64,000 bases of DNA from a virus (Duplodnaviria > Heunggongvirae > Uroviricota > Caudoviricetes): IMG/VR virus record IMGVR_UViG_3300046513_000108, positions 26,391 through 90,390 of that record. One strand, written 5' to 3'. Numbering within the stretch: position 1 is the first letter of the stretch; the number at the start of each line of letters is the position of its first letter. A program made the translations under genes and the position numbers. The notes beneath the pieces were generated by a model. That model did not search any database. It saw nothing but the letters and a program-made list of their open reading frames with translations, and was not told the DNA's origin. This document shows, piece by piece, positions 20,353 through 62,474 of this stretch.

Positions 20353-20428
20353 TGGAGCGGGCAACAGGAATCGAACCTGCGACGAACAGCTTGGAAGGCT
20401 GACACTCTACCTACTGAGTTATACCCGC
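20353..20428 (-). tRNA. tRNA-Gly (anticodon UCC)
   Basis: hand-folded cloverleaf GCGGGTA…TTCGATT…TGCCCGC-T-CCA; anticodon loop CTTCCAA; CCA is encoded. Confidence 0.85.
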
Positions 20429-20434
20429 GTTGTT

Positions 20435-20509
20435 TGGCTGTCTAGACTGGCATCGAACCAATAACCTAGTGATTAACAGTCACTTGCTCTACCATTGAGC
20501 TACTAGACA
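20435..20509 (-). tRNA. tRNA-Asn (anticodon GUU)
   Basis: cloverleaf with acceptor TGTCTAG/CTAGACA, anticodon loop CTGTTAA, discriminator G, encoded CCA. Confidence 0.85.
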
Positions 20510-20514
20510 ATGTT

Positions 20515-20590
20515 TGGTGCTACTTAGAGGATTCCAACCCCTGACATCTTCATTACAAGTGAAGCGCTCTAGCAACTGAGCTAAAGTAGC
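20515..20590 (-). tRNA. tRNA-Thr (anticodon UGU)
   Basis: acceptor GCTACTT/AAGTAGC, anticodon loop CTTGTAA, T-loop TTGGAAT, encoded CCA. Confidence 0.8.
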
Positions 20591-20591
20591 T

Positions 20592-20676
20592 TGGTGGGCG
20601 AGGAGGGATTCCAACCCTCAATCCTTTCGGCGCGTGATTTTAAGTCACGAGTGTATCGCAGTTCCACCACTCGCCC
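20592..20676 (-). tRNA. tRNA-Leu (anticodon UAA), class II with long variable arm
   Basis: 85 nt; acceptor GGGCGAG/CTCGCCC; anticodon loop CTTAAAA; variable arm forms a stem-loop; encoded CCA. Confidence 0.8.
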
Positions 20677-21150
20677 CTAATTTAATAATCCTCTGGATAG
20701 CTGACTATGGCAATTTGGACAAAGAAATCTTAGATTTTCCTCCCTATCGTCTAACCAATCTTCATTAATATGATCTACATCTAAAGTTAATGGAAAATCG
20801 TGCCACACAGGGATTTGAGAACACTTTTCACATTCGTGTTTTCTACCAATCTCAATTAAACACCTAGTCAATACACTACCTTTCTGTCTTAACCCACAGT
20901 CTCTTTTAATTAAGATTTCACTAAATTTTTTCTTTGAAAATTTCTTACCTTTATTCCACAATTGACCTGTGAAATGTTGTGTATCTAGACCTAGTTTTTT
21001 AATCCTTCTGCTATAGTGACTGTGAGAGCCACCTGTCTCTCTAATTCCTAAGTATCTAAGTACTCCTGCTATTGACTCACTATTCTCTACTGCAATAGTT
21101 AATTCTTCATCAGTTATCTTATTGTATTTTCTTTTCATACATTGAATCAT
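20677..21150 (-). CDS. HNH endonuclease
   Basis: C-x-x-C … DHIN … N … C-x-x-C-H HNH-type motif; start moved to MIQCMKRKY because the first 14 codons of the 171-aa track ORF overlap a tRNA gene. Confidence 0.75.
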   Translation of the reverse strand: MIQCMKRKYNKITDEELTIAVENSESIAGVLRYLGIRETGGSHSHYSRRIKKLGLDTQHFTGQLWNKGKKFSKKKFSEILIKRDCGLRQKGSVLTRCLIEIGRKHECEKCSQIPVWHDFPLTLDVDHINEDWLDDREENLRFLCPNCHSQLSRGLLN

Positions 21151-21158
21151 TTTTATTT

Positions 21159-21243
21159 TGGTAGGCTTACCGAGACTCCAACTCGGACGCATTTCTGCAC
21201 CGGAACCTAAATCCGGCGTGTCTAGCTATTCCACCATAAGCCC
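21159..21243 (-). tRNA. tRNA-Leu (anticodon UAG), class II; paralog of the Leu-UAA tRNA
   Basis: 85 nt; acceptor GGGCTTA/TAAGCCT with a G1-U72 wobble; D-arm nearly identical to the Leu-UAA tRNA (TGGTGGAA…CAC); anticodon stem CCGGA/TCCGG with loop TTTAGGT; variable stem-loop GCA-GAAA-TGC; T-arm CCGAG-TTGGAGT-CTCGG; A73 then CCA. Confidence 0.6.
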
Positions 21244-22595: not shown

Positions 22596-23378
22596 ATGTC
22601 CAGACAAGCAGCACGACATACCCGTAAAAAGAAAATCGAACAAGAACTTCCTCCTGTACACAAAGAGAAGTTTCAGGAAGTTGTTCCCTCACAAACAGTA
22701 GCACAGAAACTAACAGCACAAACAAAAAATCAAGCTATGCAGTTGAAATACCAGCAAGAAGGAAGAAAAGTCATCTTTGCTATTGGTGCAGCAGGTAGTG
22801 GGAAAAGTTTCTTGGCAGCTTACCATGCTGCTGAACAACTTAGAAAGAAACAAGTAGAACAAATCATTCTGCTTCGTCCAAATGTCTCCGCAGGAAAATC
22901 CCTTGGTATGCTACCCGGCACTCTAGAAGAAAAATTAGCAGTTTTCTTCACTCAAACACTCTCTCATCTCTCTTTCTTTATGGGTAAAGGTTTTATGAAA
23001 TATGCTCTGGATAAAGGTATTGTCCGTATGCAATCCATGGAACACCTTCGTGGTCTTAGTATCTCTAATGCCATTGTAATTTGTGAAGAAAGCCAAAATC
23101 TCACAGAAGATGAACTAGAAATGACCCTTTCCCGTATCGGAGATAATTGCCAAATCATCTTCACAGGGGATCAAAAACAAACAGATTTGAAGTTCAACAG
23201 TGGACTCATGAAAACTGTAGATTTGATTGTAAAAACCATCAACGATGAACCTGAATACATGACAGATGAAGATTTGGATGAATTAGAAAGCAATATTGGA
23301 GTGGTGAACTACACCATGCAAGACGTTGTTCGTTCTGGTTTGTGCAAGAGCTTCGTGAAGATGTATCATCACAACTAA
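22596..23378 (+). CDS. phoH: PhoH-like ATPase
   Basis: Walker A GAAGSGKS and the PhoH-family block …QIILLRPNVSAGKSLGMLPGTLEEKL…. Confidence 0.85.
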   Translation: MSRQAARHTRKKKIEQELPPVHKEKFQEVVPSQTVAQKLTAQTKNQAMQLKYQQEGRKVIFAIGAAGSGKSFLAAYHAAEQLRKKQVEQIILLRPNVSAGKSLGMLPGTLEEKLAVFFTQTLSHLSFFMGKGFMKYALDKGIVRMQSMEHLRGLSISNAIVICEESQNLTEDELEMTLSRIGDNCQIIFTGDQKQTDLKFNSGLMKTVDLIVKTINDEPEYMTDEDLDELESNIGVVNYTMQDVVRSGLCKSFVKMYHHN

Positions 23379-23387
23379 GGAGACAGA

Positions 23388-24077
23388 ATGAAACCACAAA
23401 GAAACAATAACCTATTGGAGCTTTTCAAGCAAGACCCTGAAGAATTCCTCCCCTCTTCTTCTCCTACTGCCTTCAGCCATGTATTCCGCTTGAATCGTCC
23501 CTTTGAAGATATTTCTCAATTCTCCTCACTGATTGACACTCTAGAGTCTGCTGGAGAAAACGATATTGTGCAAATTAGATTGGCTAGTCCCGGTGGTAGT
23601 TTAGATGCAATTATTCCTGTTTTGGCAGCAATGGATTCTACGGAAGCTTTTATTCACTGTCACGTAGATACGTCCATTGCTAGTGCAGCAACTTTTATTA
23701 TGCTTAAAGGTCATGCTATCACTTTCAACCCGCTTGCTGATGTAATGTTACACAACATCTCGTTTGGTGCTGGTGGTTCTGGTGGGAATGTTGAAGCACG
23801 AGTTAATCACATCATGAAAACCTCTAACAAGTTGATTAAAGACACATACGAAGGTTTTGTAACTAACAGTGAGATGGAAAAACTTCTCAACGGGCTTGAA
23901 TTATACTTTACTGCGGAAGAGTGTATAGAACGTCTGAAAGCACGCTCTGAGAAACAGCAGAAAGAAGAATCTGAGCCTGAAGCTCCTACTAAAGCTAAGA
24001 AGCCCCGTAAGCAGAAGGAGAAAGCTCCTACAACAGAAGATGTAGCTGCAATGTTACAACAACTAGCACAAGAATGA
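23388..24077 (+). CDS. ClpP-like serine protease with a Lys-rich C-terminal tail
   Basis: …IRLASPGGSLDA…SIASAATFIM…MLHNISFGAGG… is reminiscent of the ClpP Ser/His region; AAGGAG RBS. Confidence 0.6.
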   Translation: MKPQRNNNLLELFKQDPEEFLPSSSPTAFSHVFRLNRPFEDISQFSSLIDTLESAGENDIVQIRLASPGGSLDAIIPVLAAMDSTEAFIHCHVDTSIASAATFIMLKGHAITFNPLADVMLHNISFGAGGSGGNVEARVNHIMKTSNKLIKDTYEGFVTNSEMEKLLNGLELYFTAEECIERLKARSEKQQKEESEPEAPTKAKKPRKQKEKAPTTEDVAAMLQQLAQE

Positions 24078-24081
24078 CAAT

Positions 24082-24115
24082 AGCCCTGCACAGAGATGTG
24101 TGGGGCTTTTTATTT
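24082..24115 (+). terminator. rho-independent terminator
   Basis: AGCCCTGCACA-GAGA-TGTGTGGGGCT followed by TTTTTATTT. Confidence 0.6.
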
Positions 24116-24177
24116 GTGCTTGCACTTTGTAGGATGTTGTGCTAAAGTAGCTTCATCAAATCATTTTGGAGAAACAA

Positions 24178-25467
24178 ATGGCTAAGGCTATCGTAGCAAA
24201 GGTAACGGCTGTGCAGGAGATTCCGGGTGCAGACAAGATTCATGTGGCTGTTGTTCTTGGTGAAAACTGTATTGTTAGTAAAGATGTTGGTGTTGGGTAT
24301 GTTGGTATCCTGTTCCCTGCTGACACTCAACTGTCTGAAGAATACTGCCGTGAGAACAACCTGTTCCGTCAAGCACTGAACAACAAAGACAACACCAAAA
24401 CTGGCTTCTTTGAAGAGAATCGCCGTGTTCGTGTTCAGCCATTTCTGAAGGTGAAGTCTCAGGCTTATTTCACTTCTCTTGAAAGCCTGTCTTACGTAGG
24501 TAATTACAATGAAGTGAGTGACATTGGATATAGCTTTGACACTGTAAATGGCAAACAAATCTGCCAGAAATACATCTCTAAAGCCACTCGTGAAGCTCTG
24601 GAACGTCAACCGAAGAAAAAGAAACGTCTGATTGATTTGCCATACTTTGAGAAACACGTAGACAGTGCTCAATTTAAGCACAATGCAGCTATGATTCCTG
24701 TAGGTGCTATGCTGTCTTTCACAGCAAAGATTCATGGTACTTCTCATCGTTCTGGCCTGACTAAAGTGGTGCATACACTGCCAAAATGGAAGCAGATTGT
24801 AAATAAAGTTTATCCGTTCTTCAAACAAGAAGAATGGAAGCACATTGTAGGCACTCGTAATGTCATCCTGACAGAAGGTAAAGAAGGCTTCCACGGCTCT
24901 GAGCAATTCCGCTTCGATGTTATGGAAATGCTGAAGCCCTTTATGACTGAGGGTATGACCATTTACGGGGAGATTGCTGGCTATGCGAATGGTAAGCCTA
25001 TTATGGCAACCCACTCTGGCAAATCAACCAAAGACAAAGCTTTCCAGAAGAAATATGGAGAGAACATTGTTTATAAGTATAACTGTGCAGAGCATGAGAA
25101 TTATTTCTTTGTTTATCGCATCACTCAACTGACACAAGACGGGAAGAACATTGATATGTCTCCTGCACAGATTCAACAGTGGTGTGAAGAACGTGGATTG
25201 AATGCCCCTCTGCATGTTGCTGAATCTGAAATTTATGATGGGGATTTGGATAAGCTGCTGGCAAAGGTAGAAGCACTCACTGAACGTCCTGATGTACTTG
25301 GTGCAGACTATCTTGATCCATCTCATCCGGGGGAAGGTATTATTGTTCGTGTAGATACGGGGAAACAAAATCCGTATTTCCTGAAATCGAAGGCTTACTT
25401 CTTCAGGTGCATGGAAGGTCTTGCAGAGGCAGCAGATATGGAAGATTTGGAAGCAATTTCTGAATGA
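24178..25467 (+). CDS. RNA ligase: N-terminal tRNA-binding OB (Trbp111/EMAP-like) domain fused to an Rnl2/Rnl5-type nucleotidyltransferase
   Basis: N-terminus AIVAKVTAVQEIPGADKIHVAVVLGENCIVS resembles the tRNA_bind signature; ligase motif I is KIHGTS (T4 Rnl2 has KIHGTN), motif IV is EGIIVRV, motif V is LKSK. Confidence 0.7.
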   Translation: MAKAIVAKVTAVQEIPGADKIHVAVVLGENCIVSKDVGVGYVGILFPADTQLSEEYCRENNLFRQALNNKDNTKTGFFEENRRVRVQPFLKVKSQAYFTSLESLSYVGNYNEVSDIGYSFDTVNGKQICQKYISKATREALERQPKKKKRLIDLPYFEKHVDSAQFKHNAAMIPVGAMLSFTAKIHGTSHRSGLTKVVHTLPKWKQIVNKVYPFFKQEEWKHIVGTRNVILTEGKEGFHGSEQFRFDVMEMLKPFMTEGMTIYGEIAGYANGKPIMATHSGKSTKDKAFQKKYGENIVYKYNCAEHENYFFVYRITQLTQDGKNIDMSPAQIQQWCEERGLNAPLHVAESEIYDGDLDKLLAKVEALTERPDVLGADYLDPSHPGEGIIVRVDTGKQNPYFLKSKAYFFRCMEGLAEAADMEDLEAISE

Positions 25468-25478
25468 AAGGACTACAA

Positions 25479-25922
25479 ATGAAATGCGTAATTACTGTAG
25501 GTGTATCTGCTTCTGGTAAATCTACTTGGAGTGAGAAACAAGAGGATTTCTATGAAATCAATCGTGACAAACTTCGTTGGGAAGTGACAGGTAAGCTTGG
25601 CTGGAAGGGAGAAAATGCCTACAAGTTCTCTAGTAAAGTTGAGAAGGAAGTGAGTGATATTGCTGATCATCTGCTTGTAGAGTGTGCAAAGCGGGGAGAG
25701 GATGTTATTTTCTCTAACACCAACTTGAACCCAAAGCTTCGTAACAAACTGATTGCAGATTGTGTGTCTATGGGCTACAATGTAGAAATTGTAGAATTTC
25801 CTGTCAGTTTCCAAGAGGCTGTAAGGCGTGACAAAGAGCGTGGAATCTTCTCTGTTGGGGAAGAAGTTATTTACAAACAGTGGGAACAATGGGTAGCATA
25901 TTGGAATGAGAAGGAAGTTTGA
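25479..25922 (+). CDS. polynucleotide 5'-kinase (T4 Pnk kinase-domain homolog, no fused phosphatase)
   Basis: P-loop GVSASGKST; INRD and SNTNLNP blocks are co-linear with the T4 PseT kinase domain; ATGA overlap with the ligase gene. Confidence 0.75.
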   Translation: MKCVITVGVSASGKSTWSEKQEDFYEINRDKLRWEVTGKLGWKGENAYKFSSKVEKEVSDIADHLLVECAKRGEDVIFSNTNLNPKLRNKLIADCVSMGYNVEIVEFPVSFQEAVRRDKERGIFSVGEEVIYKQWEQWVAYWNEKEV

Positions 25923-26167
25923 TGAAGAAACACCCTCTACAAATAGCAAACGAAGAAAGAGCTAAGACAGACCCTTGTAGGCATTGTGGATTCCACAACA
26001 GGGCAGACGGAGGAAAGGGTTTCCACTTATACGAAGCAAAGTGTAAGAGTTGTGGTGGTAGTATGGATCACTCTTATCTGTGGGCACCTTGGGGAATGAC
26101 ATGGGAGCAATTGCAAGAAACCAAAGACAAATGGAACAAGATTATGGAGAAATATAAACGTGAGTAA
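25919..26167 (+). CDS. zinc-ribbon protein
   Basis: CRHC…CKSC cysteine pairs; translationally coupled to both neighbours. Confidence 0.55.
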   Translation: MMKKHPLQIANEERAKTDPCRHCGFHNRADGGKGFHLYEAKCKSCGGSMDHSYLWAPWGMTWEQLQETKDKWNKIMEKYKRE

Positions 26168-26708
26168 TATCTTTTTGACAAGTGATACACATTTTGGTCA
26201 TGTAGGAGTGACAAAGTTTCTTGCTCCTAATGGGGTTGATAAACTTCGCCCTTGGGACACTATCGAAGAAATGGATGAAGCCCTTATTGAGAATTGGAAT
26301 AAAGTTGTACGTCCACAGGACAAGGTGTATCATCTAGGAGATGTTGTAATCAATCGTCGTGCTCTGCCTACTCTGGCACGCCTGAATGGTACAAAGATTC
26401 TGATTAAAGGTAATCATGACGTATTCCGGCTGGAAGAGTACACTCCGTATTTCAAGGATGTACGGGGCAGTGGTGAACTGGCAGGATATGTACTAACACA
26501 CATTCCTATTCATCCACAAAGCTTAGAGCGTTGGAAGGGGAATTTCCATGGGCATTTGCACGCTCATAGTGTTTTGCACACATTCCAAGAGGGAGCTATT
26601 CTTAAAACAAGACATCACCCGCGTTATCTCTGTGTCTCTGTAGAACAAACAAGCTTTACACCTATTAGCTTGGAAGATGCTATCAAAAAATGGGAGAAAC
26701 AACAATGA
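26160..26708 (+). CDS. calcineurin-like metallophosphoesterase (candidate RNA 2',3'-cyclic/3'-phosphatase)
   Basis: MPP motifs SDTHFGH, GDV, GNHD and GHLH. Confidence 0.75.
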   Translation: MSNIFLTSDTHFGHVGVTKFLAPNGVDKLRPWDTIEEMDEALIENWNKVVRPQDKVYHLGDVVINRRALPTLARLNGTKILIKGNHDVFRLEEYTPYFKDVRGSGELAGYVLTHIPIHPQSLERWKGNFHGHLHAHSVLHTFQEGAILKTRHHPRYLCVSVEQTSFTPISLEDAIKKWEKQQ

Positions 26709-27001
26709 AATATTACAAGCGTGATTTTCTGAATAAAGCTGAAGGTATGGCTGCTTTTGAAGCCGATATTACTTGGGATAACGACGATGGGCATGATTAT
26801 GGTATGTCTGCTTCCTTCTGTATTACAGATTGCAGCCGTAAAGTATCACTAGACTTCTCTCCATATGGTGATGAGGAAAATAACAGCTTTTACAAACTAA
26901 CTAAGCTGATTGAAGAACTGTCTGCATTCAAAGAGAAATTTGAAGAAATTCACAAGGCGCGTGCAGAATACAAAGAGGCAAAGGAAAAAGATGAAACCTG
27001 A
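26705..27001 (+). CDS. hypothetical protein
   Basis: GGGAGAAA RBS; 98 aa. Confidence 0.5.
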   Translation: MKYYKRDFLNKAEGMAAFEADITWDNDDGHDYGMSASFCITDCSRKVSLDFSPYGDEENNSFYKLTKLIEELSAFKEKFEEIHKARAEYKEAKEKDET

Positions 27002-27512
27002 AATCTCTCTCTACAGCGGGGGCAACTTCTGCTTTACAGAACCAGATAGCAGCAACTACACTGTAAAGGATATTGCACTGAACCTCTCCAATCTCAGTAG
27101 ATTTACAGGTTCTCTTGAGAAGCCTTACAGCATTGCACAACATTGTGTATATGTCTCTCTGCTTGTTCCAGAGGAATATGCTATGGAAGCTCTTATGCAC
27201 GATGCTGGAGAAGCCTTCCTTGGAGATGTTTCCTCTCCTCTCAAGCAACTGCTTGCAGACTACAAGAAACTGGAACAGAGTGTAGAAGCTTCTATTTTCA
27301 AAAAATATGGCTTGCAGTTTCCCATGCATCCAGAAATCAAGAAAGCTGACATGCGTATGTTTGTGAGCGAGCGAATTGACTTACAGCCTAATTGTTCTGT
27401 GCGAGGATACAACTTTGAGAGAGCACCTTTTAAGGTGGTTCCTTGGGGACACAAGAAAGCTTATGAACAGTTTTTGAAGAGGTTTGATGAACTTGGAGGA
27501 GTGATTAAATGA
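26991..27512 (+). CDS. HD-domain phosphohydrolase (YfbR-like)
   Basis: H…HD…GD pattern (AQHCVYVS…ALMHDAGEAFLGDVSSPLK); AAGGAAAAAG RBS. Confidence 0.65.
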   Translation: MKPEISLYSGGNFCFTEPDSSNYTVKDIALNLSNLSRFTGSLEKPYSIAQHCVYVSLLVPEEYAMEALMHDAGEAFLGDVSSPLKQLLADYKKLEQSVEASIFKKYGLQFPMHPEIKKADMRMFVSERIDLQPNCSVRGYNFERAPFKVVPWGHKKAYEQFLKRFDELGGVIK

Positions 27513-27709
27513 AGAAAATTATTATTGTAAATAAATCTGATGTAGTTGATGAAGAATTGTTGCTTGCAGCTTTCATGAACGCAATCCCTCACCACAAAGC
27601 AAGCGAGAAAGGTGCTGTGCTACTCTACGAAGGAAAATTTGGCGTTGTTACAAGGAAGAACAAAAACAACGACTCTTTCTATTTCTATAATGTTGAAGAG
27701 AGGGTGTGA
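27509..27709 (+). CDS. hypothetical protein
   Basis: 66 aa; overlaps the upstream stop. Confidence 0.5.
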   Translation: MKKIIIVNKSDVVDEELLLAAFMNAIPHHKASEKGAVLLYEGKFGVVTRKNKNNDSFYFYNVEERV

Positions 27710-27918
27710 TGGCAATCATTGGATTTATCTTATTGTGTGTTGTGCTTCTGTATTTCCTAGCAGTGGCATGTTTTGGAATCTTCTCTGTAGGATTTAGTAT
27801 TGCAATGGGAGGTACAAAGACATATTGGTATTTGGTTCCTATTACCGGATTGCTGCTAGATTTGTGGTTGTTCTGGCTGCTGTTCCAACATGCCCCTTTT
27901 ACTATTTCTCTAATTTGA
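27706..27918 (+). CDS. small membrane protein (2 TM)
   Basis: 70 aa with two hydrophobic helices. Confidence 0.5.
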   Translation: MMAIIGFILLCVVLLYFLAVACFGIFSVGFSIAMGGTKTYWYLVPITGLLLDLWLFWLLFQHAPFTISLI

Positions 27919-27988
27919 TATGGCTGTATTAACAATCAAAGAGCACAAGAGTATAGTATAACGTTTAACAGCTACTAAATACTGTAAT

Positions 27989-28017
27989 TTGACAATACCT
28001 GTTTCACAGATTATAAT
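27989..28017 (+). promoter_or_regulatory. consensus sigma70 promoter
   Basis: TTGACA, 17-nt spacer, TATAAT; both hexamers perfect. Confidence 0.55.
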
Positions 28018-28033
28018 TCTCCTATTAAACAAC

Positions 28034-28063
28034 GAGGGAACCTTTGTGTTCCCTCTTTCTATT
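28034..28063 (+). terminator. hairpin GAGGGAAC-N6-GTTCCCTC with a U-tract; leader attenuator or terminator of the upstream unit
   Basis: perfect 8-bp stem followed by TTTCTATT; sits inside the ORF-track start of the HNH ORF. Confidence 0.4.
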
Positions 28064-28073
28064 GGAGAATACA

Positions 28074-29273
28074 TTGAATCAAGAGAATTATAGGCCACGT
28101 AAATACGTTTTTGAAGTAGGTCAAATATACCCCACAAATCATTGGGGTGAAGTAGAAGTGCTAGATGTTGTAAACTCAAACAATATCAGAATTAAATTTT
28201 TAAATACAGGTAACACCAAATCTTGTCGTAGCTCAGACCTTTCTGCTGGTAATGTCAGAGATGACAAGCTGTACAAGAAACAAGGCAATCCTTCCTCTAT
28301 CCCCTCTCCAGCTAAAGATAAATCATTCATACATGCTGGCACAGTGTTTCTAACAAACTTATATGGAGAGGTTGTAGTTGTAGAGTATGTCAATGGTAAA
28401 AATATTATTATCAAATTTACCAACACAGGTAACATTCAAACAGTTCAAAAAGATGCTTTAAAGAAGGGGCTTGTTCATGATATCAAAGAACGAAATAGGA
28501 TATCTAAGGAGAAAGAAAAACAAAGAAAGCTTTCCTTAAAATTACAAAAGGAAGAAAAGAAGAAAAACACATTAAGAAAGAGGCAGGAAAAGAAAGAGGC
28601 AAAGAAAGCTGAAGCTGTGCAAAAGAGGGCGGAAAAGAGAAAACTTAAAGATGAGGAACTGCTGTCTGTTGTTGGACTAGAGTTTTCTGATAAGTTAGAA
28701 ATGAAATTTTCTATTGTTTCAAGAGATTTGGAGACAGAACTATGCACCATCCGATATGAAGAATCTGGAAACGAGTATGAATTTACGTTCAAAAATATTG
28801 TTGGTGGGCAGTATGACGTATATGATAGGGGTAGTTCTGACTTTGAAAAGAAGTATAAACAATATTCTAAAACACGCTCTGTGAATTGGTACGAAGAGAA
28901 TAGAGAAAGACTTCTAGAAAAAGCTCTTAAGTACCAAAAGGACAATCCTGATAAAGCAAATCATTACAACCGAATCCGTCGAGGTAAGCGTAAAAATACC
29001 GAAGGAACTCACACACAAGAAGAAGTGATTGAATTGCTAGTACAACAAGATAACAAGTGTGCTTGTTGCAACACTTCATTTTTGACAGTGAAAAAACATC
29101 TTGACCACATTCATCCAATCAATCTTGGTGGCAGCAACTGGATTACTAATCTTCAATGGTTGTGTGACTTCTGCAATCTTGTTAAAAATGATTCCCACCC
29201 TGATGTGTGGTTAGAATATAGTCAGTCTGAGGAATTCAAAGAGAGGCGCATGAAAAGACTCTTGACAGTATAA
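28074..29273 (+). CDS. HNH homing-endonuclease-like protein with duplicated N-terminal module
   Basis: C-terminal CACCN…HLDHIHPINLGG…NLQWLCDFCN HNH motif; two N-terminal repeats (YGEVxV…I(R/I)IKF(L/T)NTGN); Lys/Glu-rich linker; TTG start with GGAG RBS chosen because the upstream hairpin overlaps the track start. Confidence 0.65.
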   Translation: MNQENYRPRKYVFEVGQIYPTNHWGEVEVLDVVNSNNIRIKFLNTGNTKSCRSSDLSAGNVRDDKLYKKQGNPSSIPSPAKDKSFIHAGTVFLTNLYGEVVVVEYVNGKNIIIKFTNTGNIQTVQKDALKKGLVHDIKERNRISKEKEKQRKLSLKLQKEEKKKNTLRKRQEKKEAKKAEAVQKRAEKRKLKDEELLSVVGLEFSDKLEMKFSIVSRDLETELCTIRYEESGNEYEFTFKNIVGGQYDVYDRGSSDFEKKYKQYSKTRSVNWYEENRERLLEKALKYQKDNPDKANHYNRIRRGKRKNTEGTHTQEEVIELLVQQDNKCACCNTSFLTVKKHLDHIHPINLGGSNWITNLQWLCDFCNLVKNDSHPDVWLEYSQSEEFKERRMKRLLTV

Positions 29274-29290
29274 AATCTAAACGGTATAAT
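29262..29290 (+). promoter_or_regulatory. consensus sigma70 promoter for the recombinase gene, with a TCTAAACG motif in its spacer
   Basis: TTGACA, 17-nt spacer, TATAAT; both hexamers perfect. Confidence 0.55.
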
Positions 29291-29320
29291 TCCTTCATAA
29301 ATTCACCATTAGGAGTTTGT

Positions 29321-29980
29321 ATGAACATCATTGGGTTGTGCCGTGTTTCCACAGAGGAACAAGGGGAGAGCAGGAACGGGTTAGAGGCCCAACGAAAAGA
29401 GATTGAAGTATGGGCCTCTCAGAACGGATATACAATTGTCTCCATGATTGAAGAAATCACTTCTGGCTCTCTCTCTGTGCAAGATAGACCTGTATTGCAG
29501 TCTGCCCTATCTCTTGCCCGTAAGATGAAATGCAAGATTGTAGTGTCTAAAGTGGACAGGATTAGTAGGGATGCCGCCGTTATTCACAACCTGATGCAGA
29601 AGAAAAAGGTTGTAATTTCTGTTGCGCTCGGAGAACAAGCTGACAGCTTCGTAGAGCATATTTATGCAGGGCTTGCTGAAAAAGAAAGGAAAATGATTGG
29701 AGAGAGGACTAAGGCAGGGTTAGCTGCTGCCAAAGCTCGTGGTGTAGTTTTAGGTAATCGCACCAATCTCCCAGAAGCTCGTAACATTGCTGTAAAAAAT
29801 ATCAAAGCAAAAGCTGATAGGTTTGCTGACAAGCTTCGCCCCACTATCGAACGTATGGTGAGGGACAAAATGAGCTTCAAAGCGATAGCTTCGGAGTTGA
29901 ATGCAGGAGGGACTACGACAGCTAGAGGCGGTTTGTGGTATTCTCAGACGGTTATTAATTTAGTATCCCGCTGGAAATAA
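29321..29980 (+). CDS. small serine recombinase (resolvase/invertase family)
   Basis: N-terminal catalytic motif GLCRVSTEEQ (Ser-10); about 140-aa catalytic domain plus a C-terminal HTH. Confidence 0.85.
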   Translation: MNIIGLCRVSTEEQGESRNGLEAQRKEIEVWASQNGYTIVSMIEEITSGSLSVQDRPVLQSALSLARKMKCKIVVSKVDRISRDAAVIHNLMQKKKVVISVALGEQADSFVEHIYAGLAEKERKMIGERTKAGLAAAKARGVVLGNRTNLPEARNIAVKNIKAKADRFADKLRPTIERMVRDKMSFKAIASELNAGGTTTARGGLWYSQTVINLVSRWK

Positions 29981-29997
29981 CTTAAATTTGTTGTGCA

Positions 29998-30033
29998 AAA
30001 GCCCTTTGGAGAAATCTGAGGGGCTTTTTATTT
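29998..30033 (+). terminator. rho-independent terminator
   Basis: GCCC…GGGGCTTTTTATTTGTGCT; the 3' half is identical to the terminator at 24082. Confidence 0.55.
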
Positions 30034-33879: not shown

Positions 33880-34860
33880 TTACACCAATTCCAGCGCTTT
33901 AAACATTGCCGCACTCTTAATCTCATCACCTTTACCAAAGAATGCACTATCAAGCTTTGCATCTGCTGTACGGGCCTTATTGTGATGATCTTCCCATTCC
34001 GTTACAGCATTCACCAAACCCCATGCCGTGCCGCGTACACCGGGCATATCGCTGCCCATGCCCCGGCCTTGATAAAGCGACAGGATATCCGCGATTTTGT
34101 TTTTCACTTGTGTTGATTGATCCTCAATTTCGATAATTTCAGGTTTGAACAGCAGCGATTGCAAGAATTCTTTAGCCTTATTATCTTGCATCGTTACATT
34201 GCTCAATGCCTTTGCTGCACCGATGAATTGAGCGAATTGCCCCGTAGCAATGCCAAGTTTATCTTTCATGCCTTGCCCGTCGAATTTCGTTTTATGGGAC
34301 AGGCGAACAATGTTGTTATCTTTGGCTTTCAGAGCCATTGACAGAGTGTTATTGCAAACCACTCGCACAGTGGTAAAGCGTGCTTCTGTTGCCAGCGTTC
34401 CATCAGCCGATGTAGACAGCAGCAGATATCCGCCCACTTCGTCACGGCCGACAATGTTAGCTGATTCCCCGATGCTTGCCAATGCCCACATGCGAGCGCC
34501 ACCGAACAGGGTTCCTGCTGTATGCAGCTTGAAGTCGTTCCCTGCTACAAGATCGCGGAAGAACTCCAATACATCGTGAGGCTGTACCACTTGATAGCGA
34601 TTCGACACAATGCCAAGGGCAGCTTTCGTGTCAGAACGATACAGCACGCGCTTATCATCCATCAGGCCAATGTGCATCATGTCGTCTGTGGTGAACTGAA
34701 CAGGGGATTGATTGATTTTCCAATCCATGCCCGCCGCCACTTGCCATTGCTCAATGGTTGCATTCTCTTCCAGACGTTGGCCCAAACCATGCCAAGCAAC
34801 ATCGCCGACATAAGCCATTTCAGCAAATTTGTTTTCACGAATCGTCAATTGATGTGCCAT
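33880..34860 (-). CDS. DUF945/DUF932-like phage-plasmid-associated protein
   Basis: 326 aa; the N-terminal block …AYVGDVAWHGLGQ… is typical of that family. Confidence 0.5.
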   Translation of the reverse strand: MAHQLTIRENKFAEMAYVGDVAWHGLGQRLEENATIEQWQVAAGMDWKINQSPVQFTTDDMMHIGLMDDKRVLYRSDTKAALGIVSNRYQVVQPHDVLEFFRDLVAGNDFKLHTAGTLFGGARMWALASIGESANIVGRDEVGGYLLLSTSADGTLATEARFTTVRVVCNNTLSMALKAKDNNIVRLSHKTKFDGQGMKDKLGIATGQFAQFIGAAKALSNVTMQDNKAKEFLQSLLFKPEIIEIEDQSTQVKNKIADILSLYQGRGMGSDMPGVRGTAWGLVNAVTEWEDHHNKARTADAKLDSAFFGKGDEIKSAAMFKALELV

Positions 34861-47951: not shown

Positions 47952-49955
47952 TTAAAATTTAACGTTATACAACTTTTGATTATTCACTTTCACTACAACA
48001 CTATCACCACGAGCAGACGTAAAACCCAATCCGCTAATCTGTTTCTCAGAAGGCTGGCACATAGTTTTCTGCCCTAACAATTCAAATACTTTACGATGCT
48101 TCTCCAAGTCGCCCTTCAGGAATTCATTGTAAATGCCCCGCGTTGGAACAGGATTTTTACAACCTTCCAGAGCAAAGAATACGTGTTTGCTGCCAATTTC
48201 CTTACCATTCCAGTGATTCGGAGACAGCATCATGGTGTTGACACGTACAAACTTTTCAGTTTCAATGTTCCATTTCTCTTGGCTGAATGCACCACCAACA
48301 ACACCTTGAGTTGGTTTGATGTCAACCACTTTACCACCCTTTACAGTGATAGTCAAAGCATGTTTGTTGTTTCCACTGCGCGGAGAGGTGGGAGTGCTAT
48401 ACTGATGCACAATACCATCCGACTCCACTTCAAGCGTAAAGCCGGGATTGACAGTAGTACGTTGATTGTAATTGTTTACAGTGACAATGTATTGCCCGTC
48501 CATCGGACGGCTCCACACAACGTTCTCCACAGGCTCTGTATCGCTATGCGGGCCATAAGCATTCATGTCCACATCCAGCATACCAGTGTTCTTGCTACGC
48601 ACGCCTTTGTTACCAAAGTAGATTTGATAGCCATCAGGTTCTTTGATATACAAATCCAAATCGTCTTTGTTGTACCATGCCAGAGACACACGGAATTTTG
48701 CATCCGTAATACCGCCCTGAGCCTTCACACGTTCTTTGATACTATCTGTCACATTGCCGTCATAGCTCCAAGCAAAATTATTATCCCATTTGAACAGAGG
48801 CTCCACTTCCTCATGCACAGGAGCCGTGATGCTGACAAAATTAGCTTGATGCTGATTTTTCACATGAACATCAATACTCTTAGCACCGGGAACAACGTTC
48901 TTCAGGAAGTCATCTACATTAATTTCTTGAGCTTTGCTTTCTTTCACTTCAACAGGTGCAACAGCATCAGCCAGAACGTTAGCCACGCCGCCCTTCAGCT
49001 TACCACGAACATTGTTGTCCACGAAGAGGATGTCATTGACAGAAACATCTTCCAGCGTGGCATGTCGCCGTTCCAGAGCAGGCTCCAGACCCAGAGAATC
49101 GATAGTTTTCATTGCATCATCAACCATTTTCTGAGTGATGAGAGCATTAGGGCGCTTGTAGTTGGTAGGAGCTACTTTCTGTTCAAACGATTTTACCGCC
49201 CCTTCGATGTCTACACCAGCAGACAGATCAACCAGAAGGGTGCCAATGGCGGTGTTGCGAAAGCGGGACAGGGCCATGTTGCCAGCATTCTGCCAAATAT
49301 AATTATTCTTTTCTTGTGCGCTCAGTTTGTTGTATTCTTGCTGTGCTTTAGAGAAAGAAGTCACAGAAGCAAGGAAATCATTTCCTTTGTAAAGATTGTT
49401 CTGATTGGTCAGGTCGATGACAGTAGCAAATGCTTCTGGAGTGAGTTCATCCAAGCCACGTTTAAAGACGCTCACAGACGTATTGTATTCTCCTACGACA
49501 GAGCCAACTTCTTTAGTGTAATGCTTGTTCGCAATCTGTCCGTGGAAATGGTTCCAGCGCTTCGTAACACCGTCTTTCAGTTCTACAGTGGATTCTGCAC
49601 CGTATTGCTTTTCAGACGCACGGAAGAGAGATTTAATAGGCGCAGCACTTACAATAATAGACAGTGCTTTCGCTACAATATCATACTCACTGCCAACGTT
49701 CACTGTGTCCCATACGGTTTGCATCTTACCATTCACAACAGCAACAACATTGCCAATATTACGAATGAAATTTTTGCAGCAAGAGCAATCGTGCTCAGTG
49801 CGCTCACGGTAGATTGGGTTGGTGCCTTCAGGGAATGCAGCCAGATAGGCAGCAAAGAGGTCGTCCCCGGATACGTCCACAACGAACAGTTCGTGTTTAG
49901 ACATTTCAGAGAATTGCTTGTGTACAGCTTGAGAAAACGGCTTAAAGTCAGACAT
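47952..49955 (-). CDS. large early hypothetical protein (667 aa)
   Basis: long ORF with no stops, packed against its neighbours; no NTP-binding motif recognised. Confidence 0.7.
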   Translation of the reverse strand: MSDFKPFSQAVHKQFSEMSKHELFVVDVSGDDLFAAYLAAFPEGTNPIYRERTEHDCSCCKNFIRNIGNVVAVVNGKMQTVWDTVNVGSEYDIVAKALSIIVSAAPIKSLFRASEKQYGAESTVELKDGVTKRWNHFHGQIANKHYTKEVGSVVGEYNTSVSVFKRGLDELTPEAFATVIDLTNQNNLYKGNDFLASVTSFSKAQQEYNKLSAQEKNNYIWQNAGNMALSRFRNTAIGTLLVDLSAGVDIEGAVKSFEQKVAPTNYKRPNALITQKMVDDAMKTIDSLGLEPALERRHATLEDVSVNDILFVDNNVRGKLKGGVANVLADAVAPVEVKESKAQEINVDDFLKNVVPGAKSIDVHVKNQHQANFVSITAPVHEEVEPLFKWDNNFAWSYDGNVTDSIKERVKAQGGITDAKFRVSLAWYNKDDLDLYIKEPDGYQIYFGNKGVRSKNTGMLDVDMNAYGPHSDTEPVENVVWSRPMDGQYIVTVNNYNQRTTVNPGFTLEVESDGIVHQYSTPTSPRSGNNKHALTITVKGGKVVDIKPTQGVVGGAFSQEKWNIETEKFVRVNTMMLSPNHWNGKEIGSKHVFFALEGCKNPVPTRGIYNEFLKGDLEKHRKVFELLGQKTMCQPSEKQISGLGFTSARGDSVVVKVNNQKLYNVKF

Positions 49956-58817: not shown

Positions 58818-59732
58818 ATGCTACTCATTGGCTCTCGTGCTATTCAATATTGGCTCCCTGATTGGCGAGAGCCACTTGATGTAGACCTTGTAGGCACTTA
58901 CGATGAAATTGAAGCCTATCGTAAGAGGAATAATATCAAAGTGTTCTATCCAATCAATGAAGGTAAGACAATCTTCATGCGTGACAGTGAGGGTGTTATC
59001 CATGAAGCCGAAATAGCGTGGGAAGGCTCTCGTGCAGAAAAGCTGATTAAGTTTGTTGAGGGTCAATCTGACAATGGCAGGGTGGGACAGGGGATGATTG
59101 TTCCTTCTTTGGATGTCCTGTTGCTGCTGAAGATGTCTCATAGATATCTAAAAGATTCGCCACACCATTTTAAAACAATGGATGATATCTTTGCTTTGCG
59201 TAAAGCTGGTGCAAAGATTCGTGAGGAGCACAAAGAGTTTCTTGCTGATCGTGAGAAAGATACCTACATACATAAAACGCCAAAACTGAATGTGAAGAAG
59301 GGTGAATTCTTTGCTGGTGATGGTATCAATTATGAATGGGAACATGACGATATTCACCAAGCACTGAAGTTTATGGATCAACCTGCTTACCTCTATTACG
59401 CTGGAGGAGAAGTTTGGTCCGACATGTCAAAGTTCAAACAATGTTCTCGTGAGATTCAACTGTACGGTGTATTAGAGGAATGCCTAACTTTGGCCGCTGA
59501 ACGCTCGCAGCTATGTTTCAATCCTCGTCCTGATCCTGATTGGAGCTTTAAGTTTGCTCTGGGAAAAGTGAGTTCATCAATCTGCGGTGGATATTTCCGG
59601 GAGTTTGCATGGGAGAACGCTTATGCTGTGATGGAACTGTATGAGAAAGAAGGTAAAGGTTATATGGACAAAGTAGATGAAGCAATCAAAAATGGTATTA
59701 TTCAACGAACTAAACAAAAGGAAGCTGCATAA
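58818..59732 (+). CDS. nucleotidyltransferase-fold (pol-beta superfamily) protein
   Basis: N-terminus LIGSRAIQYWLPDWREPLDVDLVG fits the hG[GS]-x(9-13)-Dh[DE] NTase motif. Confidence 0.4.
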   Translation: MLLIGSRAIQYWLPDWREPLDVDLVGTYDEIEAYRKRNNIKVFYPINEGKTIFMRDSEGVIHEAEIAWEGSRAEKLIKFVEGQSDNGRVGQGMIVPSLDVLLLLKMSHRYLKDSPHHFKTMDDIFALRKAGAKIREEHKEFLADREKDTYIHKTPKLNVKKGEFFAGDGINYEWEHDDIHQALKFMDQPAYLYYAGGEVWSDMSKFKQCSREIQLYGVLEECLTLAAERSQLCFNPRPDPDWSFKFALGKVSSSICGGYFREFAWENAYAVMELYEKEGKGYMDKVDEAIKNGIIQRTKQKEAA

Positions 59733-61521: not shown

Positions 61522-61821
61522 ATGAATCTAACAGAGACACAAGCATTGCGACAGAAGCTGTCTGAGATGACAGAGAGAGATTTTGAAGAGTGGTTAGAAG
61601 GCAAGAACAATCCTGCTTGGAATATCGGCTATGAGGCAGGTTATGATGATGGGCAGAGTGATATTGCAGCAGACATCAGTAGTGCTCGTGAAGAGGGTTA
61701 TGACAATGGCTTTGATGACGGTCATTACAACGGATTCCGTGAAGGCCGGGAAGAGGGTTATGAAGCTGGATATGGAGAAGGTTGTGAAGCCACACAAAGT
61801 AAATTTGGAGAGGATTATTAA
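61522..61821 (+). CDS. highly acidic protein with EGY-x-x-GY/F-DDG repeats
   Basis: four degenerate repeats; 99 aa. Confidence 0.5.
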   Translation: MNLTETQALRQKLSEMTERDFEEWLEGKNNPAWNIGYEAGYDDGQSDIAADISSAREEGYDNGFDDGHYNGFREGREEGYEAGYGEGCEATQSKFGEDY

Positions 61822-62474
61822 TGACGTTTAGTGCAAAACTAATTGCTGTGACGAAGCCTGTTGTAGAGGGCCTAGAGGATATGCACGACCTGATTGCATA
61901 TTGTGCGCGTGTGAGTAATCCCTCTAATCAGATGAATATGGATACAGCAGAAAAGCTTACTGCCTATCTGATGAAGCACAAACATTGGAGTCCGTTTGAG
62001 ATGGCTAATGTTGTTGTGGAAGTGGAATCCCCACGAGATATTGCTCGCCAACTTCTGCGACACACTAGCTTCAGATTCCAAGAGTTCTCTCAGCGTTATG
62101 CTGATGTGACACAACTTGAACAAGCTTTCTGTCTTCGTGAGCTTCGTATGCAGGACAACAAGAACCGCCAGAACAGCCTAGAAGCTGATGATGAATTGCT
62201 TGCTGATTGGTGGAAGAGTGAACAAGCAATGCTTCTGCATATTGTCAAAGACACGTACACTCGTGCTCTGAATCGAGGTGTTGCTAAAGAGGTTGCTCGT
62301 GTAATTCTTCCTGAAGGACTTACTATGAGTCGTCTATACGTGAATGGTACAATTCGCTCTTGGATTCATTATCTGGAAGTACGCATGGAAGAAGGTGTGA
62401 CTCAGAAGGAACACGTTATCCTCGCTACGCTGATTGCTGAACAAATCAACAGTGTGTTTAAGGTTACGTCCTAA
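61821..62474 (+). CDS. thyX: flavin-dependent thymidylate synthase ThyX
   Basis: ThyX signature …RHTSFRFQEFSQRY… (RH-x7-S-x-RY). Confidence 0.85.
   Translation: MTFSAKLIAVTKPVVEGLEDMHDLIAYCARVSNPSNQMNMDTAEKLTAYLMKHKHWSPFEMANVVVEVESPRDIARQLLRHTSFRFQEFSQRYADVTQLEQAFCLRELRMQDNKNRQNSLEADDELLADWWKSEQAMLLHIVKDTYTRALNRGVAKEVARVILPEGLTMSRLYVNGTIRSWIHYLEVRMEEGVTQKEHVILATLIAEQINSVFKVTS

Follow-up and report, generated by a model that had tools for sequence, protein, structure and literature searches.

A putative split-gene variant of the phage RNA ligase and polynucleotide kinase-phosphatase cassette in a Caudoviricetes genome from IMG/VR

We analysed a 64,000-nt stretch of a Caudoviricetes genome (IMG/VR record IMGVR_UViG_3300046513_000108, positions 26,391 to 90,390; hereafter the window, with all positions counted from its first letter) that contains a plus-strand run of eight open reading frames (ORFs; 24178-27918) encoding, among other proteins, an RNA ligase, a polynucleotide 5'-kinase and a binuclear metallophosphoesterase (MPE). 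On balance, we favour the view that this locus is a variant of the widespread phage cassette of RNA ligase and polynucleotide kinase-phosphatase (Pnkp) in which end-healing has been split into separate genes. We assign roles to the kinase and the ligase because of their family membership and conserved catalytic residues, and we propose a healing role for the MPE because its gene recurs in tight adjacency to kinase-only genes and is exchanged in place with that of a HAD phosphatase. An earlier reading of this DNA made without database searches (the sequence-only reading) had described a complete heal-and-seal cassette; the ligase-kinase-phosphoesterase core does look like such a module at the sequence level, but the link of the HD-domain protein to it is weak and the Zn-ribbon protein has almost no homologues.

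The ligase, the kinase and the metallophosphoesterase

The ligase gene (24178-25467, 429 aa), which has an ATG start with GGAG 8 nt upstream, encodes a protein that matches Pfam RNA_ligase (PF09414, 1.4e-7, which passes the curated cut-off) and PHROG 968 'RNA ligase' (4.5e-53). The protein consists of an N-terminal OB domain and a nucleotidyltransferase domain, ends ~38 aa past motif IV and has no C-terminal domain; motifs I (K184-x-H-G), IV (E386-G-I-I-V-R) and V (K403-x-K405) are present, and residues K184/H186/G187, E265/G268, E386/G387/R391 and K403/K405 are invariant in 32 ligase homologues. Given this combination of an N-terminal OB domain, a nucleotidyltransferase domain and intact motifs, the ligase is a member of the Rnl5 family with a predicted substrate, and not, as the sequence-only reading had it, of the Rnl2 type (T4 gp24.1), which has a specific C-terminal domain and no N-terminal OB domain. 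The assignment required structure comparison, as sequence searches hardly reach solved structures: phmmer against the Protein Data Bank (PDB) returned no match for the ligase, and a profile search against solved structures gave only an E value of 0.2, to the N-terminal domain of NgrRnl. The OB domain had further been described as tRNA-binding; the domain itself is present but has no Pfam tRNA_bind match, giving a below-threshold PHA02142 OB-fold match and a fold-level likeness to Trbp111/CsaA/MetRS-C.

The same arrangement of N-terminal OB and nucleotidyltransferase domains is found in the Rnl5 enzymes DraRnl of Deinococcus and NgrRnl of Naegleria; the window ligase is ~90 residues longer than NgrRnl, shares 15% identity with it and, unlike both enzymes, sits in an end-healing operon. 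Phage members of the Rnl5 clade were already noted in the original descriptions (PMC1807946). Rnl5 enzymes require Mn2+ to seal 3'-OH/5'-PO4 nicks whose 3'-OH strand is RNA, and their physiological roles have been called 'uncharted' apart from the Deinococcus DNA-repair phenotype (PMC5397189).

The second gene (25464-25922) encodes a 152-aa protein predicted to correspond to the kinase half of a T4-type Pnkp, with the HAD 3'-phosphatase domain missing. It matches Pfam AAA_33 (7e-17) and the N-terminal half of PHROG 505 'polynucleotide kinase' (1.7e-31, profile positions 2-147 of 295), and it aligns with T4 Pnk (PDB 1ly1/1ltq, E 1e-11 by phmmer) across the GxxGSGKST P-loop and the INRDxxR, (S)xTNLNP and RxxxRG motifs, so that the T4 Pnk-like 5'-kinase called from the sequence is borne out at the family level. 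The match extends no further than the T4 kinase domain, and the protein has no HAD_PNKP match and no C-terminal HAD (DxDxT) domain, whereas the 290-aa fused kinase and HAD_PNKP proteins encoded at the same position in relatives match HAD_PNKP at ~1e-42.

The MPE gene (26160-26708) encodes a 182-aa protein of the aq_1665 (PDB 1xm7) subfamily. The protein has no Pfam match of its own, and it matches PHROG 547 'phosphoesterase' (3e-51) and has homologues that carry PF12850/PF00149. It contains the binuclear, two-metal-binding motif set DxH, GD, GNH(D/E), H, GHxH; all of 31 homologues retain D9/H11, G60-D61, G84-N85-H86-D87, H114 and H130-G-H132-x-H134 without variation. The metallophosphoesterase fold is likewise confirmed. 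As the aq_1665 family has no assigned function, the comparison reveals the fold and the active site without pointing to an activity. We also considered placement in the Lambda phosphatase/CthPnkp-type clade, whose members are demonstrated RNA cyclic phosphodiesterases, and rejected it, as no specific tie to it in structure and sequence was found. The calcineurin-type phosphoesterase of the sequence-only reading is thus upheld as an enzyme family by the PHROG match and the invariant metal motifs, and its proposed activity as a 3' healer comes from gene context.

Recurrence and exchange of parts in related phages

A nucleotide comparison with GenBank phages, aimed at near-identity, returned no match to the cassette. 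Among cultured phages, the best relative is Alishewanella phage Slickus01, whose ligase is 50% identical and does not lie beside a kinase or an MPE. The usual neighbour of this ligase family is a full T4-type Pnkp (AAA_33 plus HAD_PNKP, ~290 aa), which is found beside the ligase in loci L010, L013, L017, L018, L022, L024 and L027 as well as in Stenotrophomonas phage Jojan60; the Rnl5 ligase of Bacillus phage PBC2 instead neighbours a kinase-HD fusion. The close homologues of the window kinase are nearly all ~150 aa in length and kinase-only.

These kinase-only genes occur in several arrangements. Where the window has the order Rnl5-kinase-Zn-MPE-x-HD (x denoting another gene), its closest relative L115, whose ligase is 79% identical, has Rnl5-kinase-x-x-stand-alone HAD_PNKP-x-HD, and L112 has Rnl5-kinase-x-MPE. 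In other relatives the ligase is of the Rnl1 type: L028, which belongs to the same phage group as the window (PhoH 4e-84), has Rnl1-type ligase-kinase-MPE, L118 has Rnl1-kinase-MPE, L113 has Rnl1 (T4 gp63 family)-kinase-MPE-HD_4, and L111 has Rnl1-kinase-HAD with an HNH homing endonuclease gene before the HAD gene. L114 has kinase-HAD with no ligase. All seven kinase-only genes that adjoin a ligase have a stand-alone phosphoesterase within 0-3 genes downstream, which is an MPE in five (window, L028, L112, L113 and L118) and HAD_PNKP in two (L111 and L115), and two divergent MPE subfamilies are both found at this position. At a single position, therefore, both the ligase family (Rnl5 or Rnl1) and the phosphoesterase family (MPE or HAD) are interchanged around a kinase that is retained. 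The ligase-kinase-phosphoesterase linkage thus recurs in relatives.

The 211-aa homing endonuclease gene in L111 lies between the kinase and the stand-alone HAD_PNKP gene (L111 3293-4836), an arrangement that suggests a route by which a fused Pnkp could be split.

To place these loci in a wider frame, we used a sample of 79 Pnk-kinase loci from IMG/VR, comprising 69 with fused kinase and HAD domains and 10 with a kinase only. Rnl1 or Rnl5 was found within 5 kb of 45 of the 69 fused loci, and an MPE within 5 kb of 12 of them (14 of the 79 Pnk loci overall, or 18%); two of the 10 kinase-only loci had a ligase and an MPE immediately downstream. An MPE follows in 5 of 7 kinase-only loci with a ligase compared to 6 of 45 fused loci with a ligase (Fisher p = 0.003, with loci that are not phylogenetically independent). 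It is very improbable that the gene order is fortuitous, a tight packing of unrelated genes such as is usual in phages. Overlapping stops and starts are indeed common in phage genomes, and the GC content of the cassette (0.416) equals that of the rest of the genome; however, the ligase-Pnk linkage in the fused loci, and a kinase-phosphoesterase linkage that persists across divergent phages with non-homologous parts swapped, both argue against chance.

Several observations weigh against the split-cassette reading. L108 and L109 have kinase-MPE with no ligase within the available sequence, L009 and L019 have a ligase and an MPE without a kinase, and no partner could be recognised within 5 kb of eight kinase-only genes that are more distant. 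The MPE family is also far larger than the ligase family, with >7,900 homologues compared to 570 and occurrence in 2,176 GenBank phage records (including T5-like phages) compared to 379, and Rnl5 was found within 8 kb of none of 80 sampled MPE loci. Furthermore, MPE genes also lie beside genes for a complete kinase and HAD Pnkp in L013, L176 and L182, abutting the Pnkp gene directly in L182 and lying 190 nt away in L176, and the MPE is therefore not simply a HAD replacement. Since it accompanies complete Pnkp and mostly resides elsewhere, its activity may be broader than end-healing, or different. Lastly, the cassette occupies a variable slot (22596-29980 in the window, between the ClpP-like and resolvase genes), such that some of the co-location could reflect the clustering of accessory genes in an island. 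In the window and in L009, L028, L108, L109, L114 and L115, this slot lies between conserved PhoH/ClpP-like genes and a resolvase gene, and in relatives it holds NAMPT and PRPP synthetase (NAD salvage), Macro, an antirepressor, a DNA methylase, an AP2 protein and an HslV-like peptidase, which gives it the look of an accessory or anti-defence island.

These observations would fit a reading in which only the ligase and the kinase form a repair pair, and the MPE, the HD protein, the Zn-ribbon protein and the small ORFs are unrelated accessory or anti-defence genes carried in the island, as the different contents of the slot in relatives would suggest. The MPE might then degrade cyclic (oligo)nucleotide signals, in line with the predicted targeting of such signals by phage calcineurin-like phosphodiesterases (PMC7824862), or have nuclease or protein-phosphatase activity, and the HD protein might be a deoxynucleoside monophosphate (dNMP) nucleotidase that tunes nucleotide pools. 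We regard this reading as rather unlikely. The MPE gene adjoins and overlaps a kinase-only gene in six separate contexts that span two ligase families and two MPE subfamilies, HAD and MPE share a position in the two closest phages, and the 18% of Pnk loci with a nearby MPE is, on a rough estimate, well in excess of the frequency of MPE alone. Moreover, a kinase-only Pnk without a phosphoesterase partner would leave the 3' end unhealed. In the split-cassette reading that we favour, the MPE is thus the best candidate for healing 3'-phosphate or 2',3'-cyclic-phosphate ends, as its genomic context suggests.

Precedents, proposed function and DNA repair as an alternative

One of the closest known parallels is the Pnkp and Rnl1 pair with which phage T4 counters PrrC, and the locus is a reshuffled variant of this RNA repair kit, not a new kind of system. 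Both combine a 5'-kinase with a 3'-phosphoesterase and an ATP-dependent RNA ligase, and in the window the ligase gene lies beside the kinase gene, as in 45 of the 69 fused phage Pnkp loci counted above. The window differs from T4 in that its kinase lacks the fused HAD (DxDxT) domain, its ligase is Rnl5 and not Rnl1, and its candidate healers, the MPE and the HD protein, are stand-alone; in addition, no PrrC-like target is known for the window phage. A trio in which an MPE instead of a HAD domain heals the 3' end is found in Clostridium thermocellum Pnkp, a single kinase-MPE-ligase polypeptide whose MPE domain is a 2',3'-cyclic phosphodiesterase and 3'-phosphatase (PMC2190708). Unlike the Pnkp/Hen1 system, the cassette has three separate genes for these activities and no Hen1: the whole-protein NCBIfam bacter_Pnkp match scored 18.5 bits, far short of the cut-off of 750, and no methyltransferase was found in the unit.

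A third precedent bears on the HD-domain gene (26991-27512, 173 aa), which encodes a protein of the YfdR/Atu1052-like group. In Runella slithyformis HD-Pnk, which is encoded beside a ligase, the HD domain is a 2',3'-phosphoesterase (PMC6097658), and there, as with the PBC2 kinase-HD fusion beside Rnl5, an HD phosphoesterase accompanies a kinase and a ligase within one operon of overlapping genes. The window protein is a separate gene product with three genes between it and the kinase, which rules out a fused enzyme of the HD-Pnk type, and its likeness to the PBC2 HD domain is marginal (E 3e-4, 61 residues). The family assignment as an HD phosphohydrolase, which the sequence-only reading had made, is supported by the HD motif and by PHROG 318 (3e-60). 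Among solved structures it comes closest to the uncharacterised Atu1052 (PDB 2gz4, 4.4e-11), with the H...HD...D motif aligned; the match to Pfam YfbR-like (2.4e-5, 24.6 bits) lies just below the cut-off of 25.9, and that to YfbR (PDB 2paq) is weak (E 0.97). PHROG 318 is, however, annotated as a dNMP phosphatase, and homologues of the HD protein occur mostly in lambdoid and Stx phages, where they have no RNA-repair neighbours; a family typical of unrelated temperate phages counts against membership in the cassette. The HD gene is retained downstream of the cassette only in the closest relative, L115, and this retention, the HD_4 protein of L113 and the PBC2 fusion are the points in its favour. 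The HD protein could accordingly be a second phosphoesterase of the module, and a weaker candidate than the MPE, or an unrelated nucleotidase.

From these components we can outline how the module may work. RNA cut by a metal-independent ribonuclease would carry 5'-OH and 2',3'-cyclic or 3'-phosphate ends; the 152-aa kinase, judging by its conserved motifs, would phosphorylate the 5'-OH, and a stand-alone phosphoesterase, which context suggests to be the MPE or, less probably, the HD protein, would remove the 3' or cyclic phosphate. The Rnl5 ligase would then seal the resulting 3'-OH/5'-PO4 break via the lysyl-AMP pathway, with the eight genes presumably expressed as one translationally coupled unit. 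The likely role of such a module would be to keep tRNA or other translation RNAs intact against RNA-cleaving host defences, as T4 Pnkp/Rnl1 does against PrrC, and counter-defence against tRNA nucleases is plausible by this analogy.

An alternative is that the module repairs DNA or RNA-DNA junctions, healing 5'-OH/3'-PO4 nicks or sealing 'ribo-patches' in phage DNA as it replicates, recombines or recovers from nuclease attack. Characterised Rnl5 enzymes seal duplex nicks, and their sole known in vivo role is in DNA repair after irradiation, a point that also tells against an RNA-repair role here; DraRnl, the founding member, is needed for timely genome reassembly after irradiation and seals nicks with ribonucleotide 3'-OH strand ends (PMC5397189). 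A DNA ligase was not seen among the window ORFs tested, but the 64-kb window is part of a contig and such a gene may lie elsewhere. We nonetheless consider this alternative improbable, as Rnl5 strictly needs an RNA 3'-OH end (PMC5397189), and as relatives replace Rnl5 with Rnl1-type ligases, one of which belongs to PHROG 562, the T4 gp63/Rnl1 family known for tRNA anticodon-loop repair. That Rnl1 is found where other relatives have Rnl5 speaks for a phage Rnl5 that acts on Rnl1-type RNA breaks rather than for a Deinococcus-like DNA 'ribo-patch' role. RNA repair by the split cassette can be carried one step further to a possible, and still tentative, specific proposal, namely that aq_1665-type MPE proteins heal RNA 2',3'-cyclic-phosphate or 3'-phosphate ends together with Pnk kinases, and that phage Rnl5 is interchangeable with Rnl1 in tRNA or RNA-repair counter-defence.

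Phage RNA repair is a classic answer to tRNA-cleaving host defences, and many new tRNA-targeting systems (among them PARIS, OLD and retrons) have been described recently. The combination of genes in the window had been thought possibly uncharacterised, which is true experimentally, but a part for calcineurin-like and HD phosphatases in phage RNA repair had been predicted before, in a published comparative-genomic study (PMC7824862). The present comparison extends this work by describing the repair kit as modular, with the ligase (Rnl1 or Rnl5) and the 3'-phosphoesterase (fused HAD, split HAD, MPE or HD) exchanged at one position, and it leads to two hypotheses, an RNA-repair role for phage Rnl5 and a function for an abundant, uncharacterised family of phage MPE proteins.

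Gene layout, small ORFs and surrounding genome

Each junction in the eight-gene run overlaps, by -4, -1, -8, -4, -11, -4 and -1 nt in order. The run had been described as an operon of five consecutive genes; the overlaps are real and all five genes are present, but the five are not consecutive, as a 98-aa ORF separates the MPE and HD genes, and with two further ORFs at the 3' end the unit holds eight genes. Upstream, between the ClpP-like gene and the ligase gene and with the PhoH gene also on that side, a strong plus-strand terminator-like hairpin (24082-24107; 11-bp stem with 6 G-C pairs and a T-run), identified by a consensus scan and a reading of the sequence and thus a pattern match alone, marks the upstream boundary. 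A candidate weak plus-strand promoter with an extended -10-like element (TTGCAC-17 nt-TGcTAAAGT, 24120-24148) was read by eye and not reported by the consensus scan, and we assign it low confidence. Downstream, a perfect sigma-70 consensus promoter (TTGACA-17 nt-TATAAT, 27989-28017) starts the next gene, which encodes an HNH endonuclease. Based on the overlaps and on the bracketing hairpin and promoter, we propose that all eight genes form one translationally coupled unit.

The Zn-ribbon gene (25922-26167, 81 aa) encodes a CxxC...CxxC protein with no significant family match and only three true homologues, besides spurious repeat proteins, among 1.84 billion representative proteins. This part of the proposed cassette is therefore confirmed as an ORF with the expected motif, but it has almost no homologues and no assignable role. 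Matches to the Lar family (restriction alleviation; full-length, E 0.015, below the cut-off) and to DruE were not credible. In L109, an unrelated Zn-ribbon ORF (L109 5374-5700) occupies the same gap between the kinase and MPE genes. The C-terminal tail of the window kinase (...WEQWVAYWNEKEV, 25880-25922) shares WVAYWN with the C-terminus of this L109 ORF, and the common segment hints at a recombination or insertion scar at the junction.

The conserved small protein between the MPE and HD genes (26705-27001, 98 aa, or 103 aa if the start is at 26690) has no family match; in L017, L019 and L108, homologues are encoded a few genes past the cassette, on its downstream side. The 66-aa ORF (27509-27709), which overlaps its neighbours at both ends, has no family matches and was seen only in this phage lineage; the 69-aa ORF (27709-27918), the last of the overlapping run, encodes a small hydrophobic and probably membrane protein, likewise without family matches. 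As with the Zn-ribbon protein, no role in the module is assignable to the 98-aa protein or to the two terminal ORFs.

Beyond the unit, the HNH endonuclease (28044-29273, 409 aa) has two similar N-terminal segments of ~40 aa (GEVEVLDVVNSNNIRIKFLNTGN... and GEVVVVEYVNGKNIIIKFTNTGN...) and a lysine-rich linker, and a homologue of the same layout is found at the same place in L009. A second perfect sigma-70 consensus promoter (TTGACA-17 nt-TATAAT, 29262-29290) directly precedes the serine recombinase/resolvase gene (29321-29980), which is followed by a terminator-like hairpin (29997-30028), and the HNH endonuclease and resolvase genes look like autonomous, strongly expressed units.

Five minus-strand tRNA genes, Gly(TCC), Asn(GTT), Thr(TGT), Leu(TAA) and Leu(TAG), lie ~3 kb upstream of the cassette (20353-21243). 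The count of five given by the sequence-only reading agrees with ARAGORN, and Rfam passes four, missing Leu(TAG) at 21159-21243. The PTH2-like hydrolase and NTase-fold protein that had been cited alongside the tRNAs did not appear among the 29 largest other ORFs of the window, in a search that was not exhaustive; with Pfam or PHROGs, these 29 ORFs yielded no RlaP, CCA-adding enzyme, PTH2 or similar protein, and gave only DUF932, DUF7275/7277, ThyX, a cell-wall hydrolase, DUF6197, an HNH protein and ORFs with no match. The adjacent tRNA-Asn(GTT) and tRNA-Thr(TGT) genes match species reported as targets of PARIS AriB (PMC12409363), and P2 OLD prefers tRNA-Thr(UGU) (PMC12445682). However, P2 OLD is, like AriB, a Toprim nuclease, and the 5'-phosphate/3'-OH ends it produces require no healing (PMC12445682); the link to tRNA targets is therefore only suggestive.

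PADLOC defence-system models found nothing meaningful, and a scan of bacterial genomes for a host returned only two contigs from metagenome-assembled genomes, which are probably phage. Most ORFs between 30 and 64 kb had no family match; the proteins assigned there include a DUF932 protein (33880-34860), a 667-aa PHROG 1735 protein (47952-49955, E 4e-247) and ThyX (61821-62474). A DUF7277 and DUF7275 protein (PHROG 2141, 58818-59732) has a homologue in L112 (2009-2899) that lies beside a HAD_SAK_2 gene, ~750 nt upstream of Rnl5-kinase-MPE, and may be another associate of the repair module.

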